Assembly (NCBI GenBank): GCA_902526535.1
Contig: CABZLG010000004.1
Location: forward strand, 1,815-65,814
Origin: an uncultured SAR86 cluster bacterium
GTDB taxonomy: Bacteria > Pseudomonadota > Gammaproteobacteria > Magnimaribacterales > TMED112
Reading direction: 5' to 3'
Length of the DNA stretch: 64,000 nucleotides
Shown here: positions 57,590 through 60,860 of the stretch, one piece after another
Position numbering within the stretch: the first letter of the stretch is position 1
How the letters are laid out: each line of letters opens with the position of its first letter
Notes under the pieces: model-generated
What the model saw: the letters and a program-made list of their open reading frames with translations, nothing else
Database searches by the model: none
What the model was told of the DNA's origin: nothing
Translations under genes and position numbers: made by a program

Positions 57590-57989
57590 GAAGACAAATC
57601 ATCATATTATAATTTGTTCAGCAAATTATCTTAGGTTAAAAAAAATTTTAAAAAATTTCTCCAAAACTAAGGTAGAGTTGAATAAAAAAGAAAAGAAAAG
57701 TAGATTTAAAGCGAAATTTTTATTAAAAAAATTATCAAAACATACGTCAGATTCAATTCTTGAGTTTTCAAATCTTGATTCATCCTTTTTAAACGTCTTC
57801 AATATTGGAATTAATATTTATCATGATGTTGAACTTGCAGAGGTCAAATCCCTTAACGGTTTTTATCCAAATAAATTTCCATTCCAGAGTGAAAGCATTC
57901 CTAAATCTGAAGATGAAAAATCTCAACAAAATAGATTTTTAACCGAGGTTCTTGATACCATCCTGACAGGAGATTTTTATGAAGAATAA
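57576..57989 (+). CDS. DUF1249 (YqiB-like) family protein
   Basis: Trimmed to the ATG at 57576, giving 137 aa. It aligns by eye with E. coli YqiB (NYLRLKKIL vs NFSQLRRLL; IYHDVELAEV vs LYHDAMVAEV; EDEKSQQNRFL vs RDEKHQINQFL). It is adjacent to yqiA. Confidence 0.65.
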   Translation: MQEYEKTNHHIIICSANYLRLKKILKNFSKTKVELNKKEKKSRFKAKFLLKKLSKHTSDSILEFSNLDSSFLNVFNIGINIYHDVELAEVKSLNGFYPNKFPFQSESIPKSEDEKSQQNRFLTEVLDTILTGDFYEE

Positions 57990-58554
57990 AAAACTAATTA
58001 TTTATGTACATGGTTGGAATTCGCATGAGAAAGCACGTAAGGCAGTTCTTATTGCAGAGGAGCTCAAATTAAATATTAATTATGAAGTAAGTTCTCTAAC
58101 TCTTCATCACCATCCTAGAGAGGCAATAAACCAACTTTCAGAAATTATAAAAACCGAGAAAAAAAATAGAGAGGTTTTTCTTATTGGGAGCTCCCTTGGA
58201 GGCTATTTTTCTGTTTACTTATCAGAAAAATACAATTTAAAAGCCGCAATGATTAATCCTGCAGTTTGGGCGTACAAAATTTTTAAAAATAATATGGGAA
58301 AAAACATTAATGGCAATACAGGTATAGAGTACATTGTTGATAATGAATGGGTTAATAGCCTTGAAGAAATATTTATAAAAAAAATTACTCATAAAAATTA
58401 TTTAGTCCTACTTCAAACCGGAGATGAGACCTTGAACTATAAGTTCGCTGAAAAATATTTTAAAGGTTCAAAAATAGAAATTGATAAAGGTGGTAATCAT
58501 AGTTTTGAAAATCTAGAATCAAAAATACCTATTATTCTTGAACATTTCTCATAA
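57979..58554 (+). CDS. yqiA: YqiA-type esterase (UPF0227 alpha/beta hydrolase)
   Basis: 191 aa with IIYVHGWNS, nucleophile elbow GSSLGG and a C-terminal GGNHSF. Confidence 0.8.
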   Translation: MKNKKLIIYVHGWNSHEKARKAVLIAEELKLNINYEVSSLTLHHHPREAINQLSEIIKTEKKNREVFLIGSSLGGYFSVYLSEKYNLKAAMINPAVWAYKIFKNNMGKNINGNTGIEYIVDNEWVNSLEEIFIKKITHKNYLVLLQTGDETLNYKFAEKYFKGSKIEIDKGGNHSFENLESKIPIILEHFS

Positions 58555-58676
58555 AAAGTTCTAATACTTAAATTCCCTTGCTTATAAAGACAAAAAGTTT
58601 TAAATTTAAATTGCATTTAGACTTTGCACCATTCTCCTTATAACTTAAGGAGCCCTATAGGGTAAAAGGTTAAAAT

Positions 58677-58725
58677 CGTTCATCTTCGAAAGAGGACGGA
58701 AGTAAGCGAAAGCTGAAGGAACGCG
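58677..58725 (+). promoter_or_regulatory. glutamine riboswitch (glnA RNA motif) in the 5' leader of glutamine synthetase
   Basis: The sequence is CGUUCAUCUUCGAAAGAGGACGGAAGUAAGCGAAAGCUGAAGGAACGCG. P1 is CGUUC/GAACG. The conserved GGACGGAAGUA and GAAGGAACGCG blocks are present. P2 is AGC-GAAA-GCU with a GNRA loop. It ends 77 nt upstream of the GS start codon. Confidence 0.8.
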
Positions 58726-58801
58726 GCGTTAAACCCGATCGAGTTTAACTTCATTACTCCTGCAGATAAAAATGCAAAAAATTTTATTTTAAGGAGACTT
58801 T

Positions 58802-59779
58802 ATGAGCGATATTAAAACTTATGAATACATTTGGCTTGATGGTTTTAAACCCGAGCCTTCTATGAGGAGTAAAATTAAGGCAACAACCGAAGATTCTGCT
58901 CCTGAATGGTCCTTTGATGGATCTTCTACAGAACAAGCAGAAGGGAGCAGTTCAGACTGTTTGCTTCTTCCAGTTCAGACTTACGATAATCCAACTTTTT
59001 CTGACAAGCTAGTAATGTGCCAGGTACATGCTGCAGATCATACTGTTCATCCCTCAAATACAAGGGCAGCAGCTGAGGCAGTTGTAAAGGACGATTGGTG
59101 GTTTGGCTTTGAGCAAGAATATTTTTTTACGAATAAAGACGGGTCACCTCTTGGCTGGGAAGAAGGTGAACCCAGACCACAAGGTGATTATTATTGTGGA
59201 GTAGGTGCTGACAATGTTTCAGGCAGAGAAGTATCTGAGGCGCATCTTGAAGCATGTCTAGATGCTGGAATTAGCTTGACTGGAACAAACGCAGAAGTTG
59301 CTCTAGGTCAGTGGGAATACCAATGCTTTGGGAAAGGCATCAAAGCAGCAGATGATCTTTGGGTATCTAGATATCTTCTATTTAAAGTTGCTGAAGAATA
59401 TGGAGTAGGAGTGAATATTCATCCGAAGCCAAAAAAAGGTGATTGGAATGGTTCGGGTATGCATACGAACTTCTCAAATGAAGAAATGAGATCAAAGGGT
59501 TCGGAAGAGCTATTCTCTTCAATATGTGAAAAGTTAGGAAAAGTGCATCAGGATGGTATTGCAGCTTATGGTTCTGATAATGATCAAAGACTAACAGGAC
59601 TGCACGAAACTCAAAAGATTACAGAGTTTTCATATGGTGTTAGTGACAGAGGGGCTAGTATACGTATCCCTGTGTATACAGTTGAGCATGACTGGAATGG
59701 ATACTTGGAAGACAGAAGACCAGCTTCAAATGCCGATCCATATAAAATTCTTGCTCACATAGTAGGAACTTTAACTTAG
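58802..59779 (+). CDS. glnII: glutamine synthetase, type II (eukaryote-like, short form)
   Basis: 325 aa with a GSII-type N-terminus (YEYIWLDG...MRSK...WSFDGSSTEQAEGSSSD) and catalytic-domain motifs (FGFEQEYFF, HPKP..GDWNGSGMHTNFS, RGASIRIP). A strong AAGGAG SD lies 6 nt upstream. Confidence 0.9.
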   Translation: MSDIKTYEYIWLDGFKPEPSMRSKIKATTEDSAPEWSFDGSSTEQAEGSSSDCLLLPVQTYDNPTFSDKLVMCQVHAADHTVHPSNTRAAAEAVVKDDWWFGFEQEYFFTNKDGSPLGWEEGEPRPQGDYYCGVGADNVSGREVSEAHLEACLDAGISLTGTNAEVALGQWEYQCFGKGIKAADDLWVSRYLLFKVAEEYGVGVNIHPKPKKGDWNGSGMHTNFSNEEMRSKGSEELFSSICEKLGKVHQDGIAAYGSDNDQRLTGLHETQKITEFSYGVSDRGASIRIPVYTVEHDWNGYLEDRRPASNADPYKILAHIVGTLT

Positions 59780-59789
59780 TAAACTTTTT

Positions 59790-59816
59790 AGCCTTCTACT
59801 TAACCAGTGGAAGGCT
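59790..59816 (+). terminator. rho-independent terminator candidate for glnII
   Basis: An 11-bp stem, AGCCTTCTACT / AGTGGAAGGCT (one G-U pair), closes loop TAACC and is followed by TTCTTCTT. It starts 11 nt after the glnII stop and overlaps the 3' end of the convergent rhodanese gene. Confidence 0.55.
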
Positions 59817-60200
59817 TTCTTCTTGCCAAGAAAGAAGACCATGTTTGAGAAGATAAACCTTTTCTATACCTAACTTTTTCAACTCAACCCCCGCACTGCC
59901 AGAATCAATACCATTTTCAGAAACCACAATAAGCGCATTTTCTTTTTTTAATAAATGTTCTTGCTGTATGAACGCATCTTTTAATATATTTAAAGATCCA
60001 CTGATATGGCCAGTTTCAAAATCTTCCTTCTTTCTAATGTCCAAAAATTTTGCTTCACCACTGTTTATAAGTAAAACAGCTTCTGCTGGAGAAATTTTCT
60101 TACCCCCTTTATTGCTTTCATAAACCCACCAGCTTATTAAAGTTGCAATAAGTGGAATTGAAAAATACCATCTAGAAATTAAGAAATCGAACAAATCCAT
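59796..60200 (-). CDS. membrane-anchored rhodanese-homology domain protein lacking the catalytic cysteine
   Basis: 134 aa with an N-terminal TM helix and the rhodanese pattern (FLDIRKKEDFETGHISGSLNI). The active-site loop position reads VVSENGIDSGS, and the protein has no Cys at all. Confidence 0.7.
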   Translation of the reverse strand: MDLFDFLISRWYFSIPLIATLISWWVYESNKGGKKISPAEAVLLINSGEAKFLDIRKKEDFETGHISGSLNILKDAFIQQEHLLKKENALIVVSENGIDSGSAGVELKKLGIEKVYLLKHGLLSWQEESLPLVK

Positions 60201-60245
60201 ATAAAATCAATCTTAAGCTTATACAATATATTTAAATATACTCAA

Positions 60246-60860
60246 ATGGAAACAAATTATCTTGTTCTTGTAAGGCACGGCCAAAGTGCCTGGAATCAAA
60301 AAAATTTATTCACTGGATGGAAAGATCCAGGGTTAACAGAATTAGGTAAAGAAGAAGCATTAAATGCTGGCCAACAAATTAAAAAACAGAACATTAAATT
60401 TAATTTAGTTTTCACTTCTGCTTTAAAAAGAGCACAAGATACAGCTTCGATAATTCTAGAAGTAATTGAAGAAAGTAATATAATTTTTTTTAAAAATGAG
60501 GCACTAAACGAACGTGATTATGGTGACCTTACTGGATTTAATAAAGATATGGCTAGAAAAGAATTTGGTAAAGAACAAGTACGAATTTGGCGCAGATCTT
60601 ACACAGATGGTCCACCAAATGGTGAAAGTCTTGAAGATACATATAACAGAGTTATTCCCTACTTTGAAAATAAGATTATGCCTGCTTTACAAAAAAATAA
60701 GAATGTCATTATTTCTGCTCACGGCAATTCATTGAGAGCTTTGGTAAAATTTATTGAAGAAATATCTGAAGAGGAAATAGTGAAGTTAGAAATTGCAACA
60801 GGCGAGCCGATTTTTTATGAATTCAGTGAAAATAAATTGCAAAGAAAGCTCAGTTGGTAA
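60246..60860 (+). CDS. gpmA: 2,3-bisphosphoglycerate-dependent phosphoglycerate mutase (short form)
   Basis: 204 aa with LVRHGQSAWN (catalytic His), RAQDT, and SAHGNSLRAL (second His). Confidence 0.85.
   Translation: METNYLVLVRHGQSAWNQKNLFTGWKDPGLTELGKEEALNAGQQIKKQNIKFNLVFTSALKRAQDTASIILEVIEESNIIFFKNEALNERDYGDLTGFNKDMARKEFGKEQVRIWRRSYTDGPPNGESLEDTYNRVIPYFENKIMPALQKNKNVIISAHGNSLRALVKFIEEISEEEIVKLEIATGEPIFYEFSENKLQRKLSW

Follow-up and report, generated by a model that had tools for sequence, protein, structure and literature searches.

A predicted glutamine riboswitch before the type II glutamine synthetase gene of a SAR86 gammaproteobacterium: a conserved leader with the layout of a possible OFF switch

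The sequence analysed here, called the window, is a stretch of 64,000 nucleotides (nt) from an uncultured SAR86 cluster bacterium (contig CABZLG010000004.1, positions 1,815 to 65,814 of the forward strand). It carries on its plus strand glnII, which encodes a type II glutamine synthetase (GSII) of 325 aa (58802..59779; Pfam, NCBIfam and structure matches), and, upstream on the same strand, a Glutamine-I (glnA motif) aptamer (58675..58727) with predicted ligand binding. The glnA motif received its name from its association with glutamine synthetase (GS) genes in marine metagenomes. A match to this RNA motif had been claimed in an earlier note on this DNA, and the Infernal search proposed there bore it out: with cmscan on the whole window, RF01739 was matched at 58675-58727 (+) with 66.4 bits (E 1.6e-12) and over its full length (model positions 1-53 of 53), the gathering score being 35 bits. 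This score is close to the maximum of the family, and all upper-case consensus positions of RF01739 were matched in the cmscan alignment. When the local stretch alone was compared with Rfam, the E-value was 7.4e-15 and no other family came anywhere near its own threshold. The aptamer ends 74 nt before the glnII start, and neither an open reading frame (ORF) nor a terminator lies between them.

The window aptamer has the three helices P1 (58677-58681 with 58719-58723), P2 (58683-58687 with 58692-58696) and P3 (58705-58707 with 58712-58714), all on the plus strand, around the conserved junctions CGUUCA, ACGGAAGUA and GAAGGAACGC, and the segment joining P2 to P3 (J2/3, 58697-58704, +) is CGGAAGUA. 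On binding, glutamine is reported to order J2/3, to stabilise P1 and to draw the C that directly follows P1 into a linchpin pair (PMC11477058). C58724, directly 3' of P1 after GGAACG, is the expected linchpin C, and G58698 and G58699 are found in J2/3; for these three bases it is presence in the sequence that is reported. For comparison, 54 distinct homologous leaders from genomes and metagenomes were aligned (alignment A1). P1 was invariant in them, and P2 and P3 were 97-99% paired with compensatory changes in five pairs, both helices being affected.

It was also considered that the aptamer could be a decaying relic, or an independent small RNA, without control over glnII, as could be suspected from the fact that no promoter passed the consensus scan. 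This is hardly credible in view of the near-maximal family score, the compensatory changes in P2 and P3, a position held at 73-89 nt before the GS start over dozens of lineages, and an expression platform that covaries with the Shine-Dalgarno region. The element in the window is almost certainly a genuine riboswitch, and it probably controls glnII.

The product of the downstream gene matched both Pfam domains Gln-synt_N and Gln-synt_C. The NCBIfam model GlnII (NF041605) gave 379 bits over positions 5-328 of 333, a score that does not reach the strict equivalog cut-off of 500, versus only 51.6 bits for the model of the type I enzyme (GSI). Its best solved structure was 4bax, a GSII (321 bits); the following PDB matches are titled just 'glutamine synthetase', and we take several of them to be eukaryotic GSII enzymes. 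The full-length GlnII match together with 4bax confirmed the previous proposal that a GSII stands directly behind the riboswitch. In the window's own genome one GSII copy was found and no GSI at E <= 1e-20, glnII being the sole glutamine synthetase found in this assembly, which is 71% complete.

The remark that glnII is less AT-rich than its neighbours was also correct, since its G+C content (0.411) was the highest among the 37 larger window ORFs checked, against 0.324 for the window; the H+-pyrophosphatase gene came second with 0.395. The horizontal origin that had been hinted at on this basis was rejected because GSII is distributed SAR86-wide, with 543 SAR86-type GSII loci and a GSII phylogeny, as recommended in the earlier note, that spans SAR86, and because the raised G+C is shared by the conserved pyrophosphatase gene. 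The gammaproteobacterial host proposed previously was confirmed and specified as a member of the SAR86 order. The closest public GSII loci belong to SAR86 cluster bacteria, with up to 98% identity, and include one on a complete chromosome of 1.0 Mb (CP097968.1). The window's assembly (GCA_902526535.1) has 771 kb and about 32% G+C, and the host is an AT-rich, streamlined gammaproteobacterium of the SAR86 cluster with a genome of about 1 Mb.

The glnII leader is about 190 nt long, and upstream of it stands a putative sigma-70-type promoter (58578..58606, +) made of TTGCTT (58578-58583), a 17-nt spacer and TAAATT (58601-58606). It was recognised by conservation, as TTGCYW-17-TAMATT could be read by eye at equal distance in the related leaders, about 75 nt upstream of the first aptamer; the consensus promoter scan did not report it, the site being too weak. 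The transcript would start near 58612. Between this point and the aptamer there is a conserved 5' element (58623..58674, +), and no Rfam family was found at E <= 10 for it or for the other conserved elements flanking the aptamer. Its common plan is UUUGCACCAUACUCCAUGG-UUAAAAA-GGAG-hairpin-AGUUAAA, and the relatives' version, CCAUACUCCAUGG-UUAAAAA-GGAG, can be folded as an H-type pseudoknot. In the window this part is remodelled to a plain hairpin, CUCCUUA (58634-58640) with UAAGGAG (58646-58652), followed by CCC/GGG (58653-58662) and by GUUAAA (58669-58674). For the loop pairing CUCC:GGAG of the 5' element, the paired share was 98.8% and two changes affected both sides; as 8 of 500 shuffled sets performed equally well, the support is weak. 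Within the genus, the exact 13-mer CCATACTCCATGG occurs exclusively just upstream of glutamine aptamers. Many relatives have at the 5' end of the leader the sequence CTGCAT-N5-TTGCA, resembling a dead sigma-54 promoter.

One or two aptamers are present per related leader, and they are followed by a common platform, GCG-N1-3-CGUUAAAC-loop-GAGUUUAACUUC. Its first part is the hairpin H1 (58728..58749, +; 7 bp), formed by GUUAAAC (58728-58734), the loop CCGAUCGA and GUUUAAC (58743-58749). A hairpin had been indicated before at this position; it is indeed present and 100% paired in the 54 leaders, with changes only from U-A to U-G and from G-C to G-U. An alternative fold, for which the support is mixed, could join the H1 loop to the preceding linker (58724-58728) by base pairs. 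The 3' strand of H1 is included in the segment GUUUAACUUC (58743..58752, +), which is invariant or changes only by wobble in the 54 leaders and may act as the switching segment because it has three possible partners: GUUAAAC of H1, GAAG-GAAC of the aptamer 3' half (58715-58722), or the GGAG of the Shine-Dalgarno sequence through CUUC. This CUUC (58749-58752) is invariant and can pair either with GAAG (58715-58718) or with GGAG (58793-58796), and UCCU could likewise pair with the AGGA of the aptamer or with that of the Shine-Dalgarno sequence. The decoy partner of both types of anti-Shine-Dalgarno segment lies inside the invariant GAAGGAA of the aptamer, which is itself Shine-Dalgarno-like.

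A second anti-Shine-Dalgarno segment, CUCCU (58757..58761, +, by direct reading), belongs to the sublineage of the window. Its pairing with the AGGAG Shine-Dalgarno sequence was suggested in the earlier note; the positions given were right and the pairing is real in this sublineage, but it is not a conserved feature, as the relatives have UCCU or nothing there and share instead the invariant CUUC with its extension. In the relatives the anti-Shine-Dalgarno segment is either CUUCUA... or (C)UCCUGCAG located 5-7 nt further on; those with CUUCA carry (C)UCCUGCAG, and those with CUUCUA lack it. In lineages with CUUCA, the window's included, (C)UCCU stands a few bases further downstream. UUACUCC (58754-58760) is also complementary to GGAAGUAA (58698-58705) in the aptamer core. 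Downstream, UGCA-N8-UGCA (58761..58776, +) lies between the anti-Shine-Dalgarno and the Shine-Dalgarno sequences; it is conserved as UGCA-N7-9-UGCA in nearly all related leaders and may be a spacer hairpin. The leader ends with the Shine-Dalgarno AGGAG (58792-58796) and the start codon AUG (58802-58804), together 58792..58804 on the plus strand.

The pairing of CUUC and its extension with the Shine-Dalgarno region was analysed statistically in the aligned leaders. It reached 89.6% paired positions versus 82.5 +/- 0.9 in shuffled sets (0 of 500 as high) and 42-66% in slid controls. Four pairs of this helix were changed on both sides, and the extension covaries with the bases directly 5' of the Shine-Dalgarno sequence, for example GCUUCUAAA/UUUUAGGAGC, CUUCUAUAG/CUAUAGGAG and CUUCUAA/UUAGGAG. 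The mean duplex energy was -7.14 kcal/mol for own-lineage combinations and -5.98 kcal/mol for cross-lineage ones (0 of 5000 permutations). In addition, an anti-aptamer fold was the predicted minimum-energy fold of most leaders, and without ligand it was on average about 2.5 kcal/mol better than the fold with P1.

The best model for these data, to which we give a probability of about 0.5, is a glutamine OFF switch acting on translation. At low glutamine the aptamer would be loose and its purine-rich, Shine-Dalgarno-like 3' half GAAGGAAC (58715-58722) would pair with GUUUAACUUC, the linker pairing with the hairpin loop and extending this anti-aptamer; the anti-Shine-Dalgarno segments CUUC and CUCCU would then be occupied and ribosomes would load. 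At high glutamine the ligand would lock P1, J2/3 and C58724, H1 would form, and CUUC and CUCCU would be set free to mask AGGAG and the start region. The serial complementarity from the GAAG of the aptamer to CUUC and from CUUC to GGAG is, as a predicted pairing scheme, an OFF-switch layout. If true, the OFF switch works because the conserved GAAGGAA of the aptamer is a mimic of the Shine-Dalgarno sequence. From the leader sequences we infer glutamine binding by the window copy, the direction of the regulation and translation as the controlled step. Taken separately, the OFF direction is somewhat probable, and the specific competition of anti-Shine-Dalgarno segments stands at even odds or slightly under them. 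The expectation that the expression platform would differ from the characterised cyanobacterial ones was borne out, and its architecture fits an OFF switch.

Several results weigh against this model. By nearest-neighbour folding, the CUCCU/AGGAG hairpin of the window is predicted in both states, and the unpaired probability of its Shine-Dalgarno sequence was 0.20 when P1 was imposed and 0.13 when the anti-aptamer was imposed. In the 54 leaders the mean value was 0.28 in the bound-like and 0.31 in the free-like state, the sign varying by lineage, and no consistent direction of the predicted shift in accessibility of the Shine-Dalgarno sequence and AUG was seen. The columns of the anti-aptamer helix are invariant and hence without covariation support, and the covariation between linker and loop was discarded as a proof of this fold because it was mixed and ambiguous. 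An unbound state in which CUCCU would be kept off the Shine-Dalgarno sequence by pairing with the aptamer core GGAAGUAA was also rejected, as this fold can form but was 3.9 kcal/mol worse than the Shine-Dalgarno hairpin. Furthermore, the covariation statistics take no account of the relatedness of the leaders, which are also rich in A+U. Finally, the 5' strand of P1, AUCGUUCAU, is complementary to the start region AUGAGCGAU, from which the opposite direction of regulation is predicted. In the bound-like fold of the window, UUCAU (58750-58754) is additionally paired with AUGAG.

As the predictions show a mostly paired Shine-Dalgarno sequence for either state, another read-out is conceivable, in which a functional aptamer would act mainly at the transcript level, by Rho-dependent termination or RNase-dependent decay through the choice between H1 and the anti-aptamer, the masking of the Shine-Dalgarno sequence being secondary. 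The length of the leader (~190 nt), its conserved 5' structures and the UGCA-N-UGCA element would agree with this. However, the covariation indicates a helix that includes the Shine-Dalgarno sequence, and no terminator-like hairpin with a U-tract exists inside the leader, H1 being a weak A+U-rich stem without a proper U-tract; we regard control at the transcript level as unlikely. Transcription attenuation was rejected on account of the weak H1 stem and of the terminator scan, which gave no terminator-like site in the leader, and is retained solely within this alternative.

The complementarity of the P1 5' strand raises the contrary possibility of an ON switch, in which, without glutamine, AUCGUUCAU (58675-58683) would pair with the start region AUGAGCGAU (58802-58810) and block initiation, and bound glutamine would draw this strand into P1 and so free the AUG. 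In the window this complementarity extends over 9 bp (-10.7 kcal/mol). Of the 16 distinct glnII starts that stand behind a riboswitch (AUG AGY GAU or AUG GGU GAU), 12 had a contiguous 9-bp duplex, versus none of the 48 riboswitch-less starts (AUG UCA/GCA/ACA GAU). In many leaders the helix is included in the minimum-energy fold computed without constraints, and the riboswitch characterised in cyanobacteria works as an ON switch (PMC6212724). Nevertheless, six of the nine pairs are already given by the AUG and an ancestral GAU codon, chance pairing of the middle codon is expected in about 1 of 8 cases, and covariation says nothing as the aptamer strand is invariant. The pairing is also lacking in leaders with the same platform, namely those of GSI and TonB-receptor genes and those of two GSII lineages (L016 and L105), and for these reasons it was downgraded as the main mechanism. 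Besides, an ON switch would leave the conserved CUUC and H1 module without explanation and would imply that glutamine induces GS, a nutrient receptor and, by analogy, the ammonium transporter, which is physiologically implausible. An ON switch is thus distinctly improbable for this leader. The OFF direction is favoured because a GS and a nutrient receptor behind the platform are expected to be repressed under nitrogen sufficiency; the platform of the ammonium-transporter operon is of another kind.

The classical control of GS in enterobacteria and pseudomonads is exerted by the GlnD-PII-NtrBC-sigma-54 pathway together with adenylylation by GlnE. The presence of these regulators, a check proposed in the earlier note, was examined in 61 genomes, of which 30 belong to the window's genus and 31 to three further families of SAR86. 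None of the 30 genus genomes contained PII, GlnD, a full-length RpoN or an NtrC over the cut-off (matches were to the receiver domain only), versus 30, 20, 20 and 26 of the 31 genomes in the rest of the order, respectively. GlnE was found in no genome of either set (0/30 and 0/31), and GSI was lacking in 26 of the 30 genus genomes, the window's own among them. As the window's genome is only 71% complete, the absence of the regulators rests on the genus, two of whose genomes are single-contig assemblies rated 93-95% complete. In both systems the signal is glutamine and the target is GS, plus the ammonium transporter elsewhere in the genome, but the other SAR86 families still carry the classical proteins, with sigma-54/NtrC-like sites before glnII, whereas none of these proteins was found in the window's genus, in which sensing would be done by RNA in cis.

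The upstream regions of glnII agree with this distribution. The sigma-54-like motif TGGCAY-N5-TTGCA was present in 11 of 62 aptamer-less SAR86 glnII loci and NtrC-like palindromes in 14 of 62, versus 0 of 14 for each in the aptamer-bearing loci. The predicted riboswitch occupies the place where other lineages have protein-dependent sites. In one genome of another family (G043), NtrC, RpoN and GlnD are also gone, four aptamers are present and the glnII leader is the same as in the genus. Two further observations concern the regulators in other groups: in family f4 (genomes G032-G059) most members have a full-length NtrC, while full-length RpoN and GlnD are absent, and in genus g11 an NtrC-like protein of 258 aa is devoid of its AAA+ middle part and gltB is preceded, at 33-35 nt, by a glutamine aptamer.

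With PII, GlnD, NtrBC and sigma-54 all missing from the genus, GS and ammonium uptake may have no glutamine sensor other than the RNA. A second aptamer of the window's genome (G000:C2:16515-16566, minus strand; locus L002, 1501-1552; 66.4 bits) precedes a Gcw_chp porin-like gene and amtB, divergently from gltB. Its platform is different, with two copies of the CCAUACUCCAUGG...GGAG motif upstream. Within the genus, 27 of the 30 genomes had an aptamer over the cut-off; in the other three families the numbers were 1 of 11, 7 of 10 and 4 of 10. When 401 gammaproteobacterial genomes were sampled evenly, RF01739 had matches in the SAR86 order only (0 of about 397 outside SAR86). On the GSII tree the distribution of the leader is patchy, and at least four gains or losses are needed to explain it.

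Three kinds of genes stand behind the GS-type platform: those for GSII, for GSI and for a TonB-dependent receptor of about 775 aa that contains a Plug domain, the last one with tandem aptamers (L121, L123, L138 and L190). In four members of the genus GSI stands for GSII at the same locus (L134, L142, L005, L007 and L011, matching window 57979-60860), behind the same tandem-aptamer leader as GSII and with identical neighbours (femAB-like, yqiA-like, rhodanese-like and gpmA genes); no GSII was found in these four genomes. GSI is here an in-situ replacement of GSII. A further type of platform, short and of the cyanobacterial type (GGAACG-CAUCUUUUU...AAAAGGAGAUG), was found with tandem aptamers before genes for basic peptides of 45-54 aa (L186, L187, L188, L189 and L191), one of which is a weak match to DUF4278. 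These peptides occur in SAR86 families keeping PII and NtrC, and also in GSI-bearing members of the genus. Possibly they correspond to the GS-inactivating factors of cyanobacteria; should they inhibit GS, a common logic would not be expected for the enzyme and its inhibitor, which counts for the OFF direction of the long platform. We propose, by analogy, that two switch logics, that of the long GS platform and that of the short ON-type platform, coexist in one clade.

The best-known comparison is the type-1 glutamine riboswitch of Synechocystis gifB (encoding IF17), an ON switch in which glutamine is thought to melt a short helix masking the ribosome-binding site (Klahn et al. 2018, PMC6212724). 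Both RNAs share the three-way-junction aptamer, the CGGAAGUA junction, the GAAGGAACGC 3' half and a location in the 5' untranslated region of a nitrogen-metabolism gene, and translation is probably controlled in both. However, the cyanobacterial switch turns on a GS inhibitor by means of a few nucleotides just after P1, whereas the SAR86 aptamer precedes GS itself and has directly downstream a conserved module of about 75 nt (hairpin, invariant GAGUUUAACUUC and anti-Shine-Dalgarno segments) with a layout that fits an OFF switch, and the host is a heterotrophic gammaproteobacterium.

Aptamers of the glnA motif before glnA have been described in anonymous marine metagenome reads (Weinberg 2010 and Ames & Breaker 2011, as summarised in PMC6212724), and the same paper states that the hosts of these copies, and the effect of glutamine on them, are unknown. 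As in our leaders, these aptamers precede GS genes in ocean samples and are often in tandem, and they probably form one population with ours; in the present case SAR86 is identified as the host, the GS is of type II, and the genomic background and the platform are described. For SAR86 metagenome-assembled genomes, RF01739 has so far been listed only in passing, in a 2025 survey (PMC12379486). The aptamer class and its link to GS genes in metagenomes are therefore already known, and what is new is the named host, the genus-wide loss of the protein network, the conserved read-out module common to GSII, GSI and receptor genes, and the patchy distribution of the leader. SAR86 is among the most abundant groups of marine heterotrophs, and with this locus a host can be named, one of the points left open by PMC6212724.

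A parallel is offered by 'Candidatus Pelagibacter ubique', a streamlined marine heterotroph without glnB, glnD, glnK and ntrBC (Smith et al. 2013, PMC3870248). Under nitrogen limitation its GlnA and AmtB proteins went up, the change of their mRNAs being without statistical support, and a riboswitch-like control was suspected (PMC3870248). Both organisms are streamlined marine heterotrophs that lost PII and NtrBC, but Pelagibacter (SAR11) belongs to another class, has a type I GS and keeps NtrXY, and PMC3870248 assigns no glutamine aptamer to its glnA, while in SAR86 the sensor RNA can be named. The locus would be a clean case of cis-RNA replacing protein regulators during genome streamlining, with a compact conserved read-out module that makes the proposed ON/OFF duality of one aptamer class in one clade testable. 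More tentatively, and with more doubt than confidence, a glutamine riboswitch cassette built from the promoter, the pseudoknot at the 5' end, one or two aptamers and GAGUUUAACUUC as an inverter module could in this genus have taken over the whole job of GlnD-PII-NtrBC-sigma-54, and would be the first natural OFF-type glutamine riboswitch and a portable one. If this were true, a single kind of leader would drive GSII, the GSI replacing it in situ and the TonB receptor.

Downstream of glnII, the terminator scan identified a terminator-like hairpin (59790..59816, +), common to glnII and the convergent rhodanese-like gene. In the GSII tree, some sequences labelled as Neomarinimicrobiota or Pelagibacteraceae (L101, L104, L107 and L062-L089), with 78-83% identity to the window protein, were placed within those of SAR86, which suggests that the records are mislabelled or misbinned or that the gene was transferred. 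In one single-contig relative (G017:C1:1001889-1002862), glnII is split into two overlapping frames near residue 106-110, either by a frameshift or by an assembly error. Finally, in another SAR86 family a single aptamer was observed before a gene encoding a protein of 477 aa (MGVTFRVY...REWPLDL...; L023 and L027).

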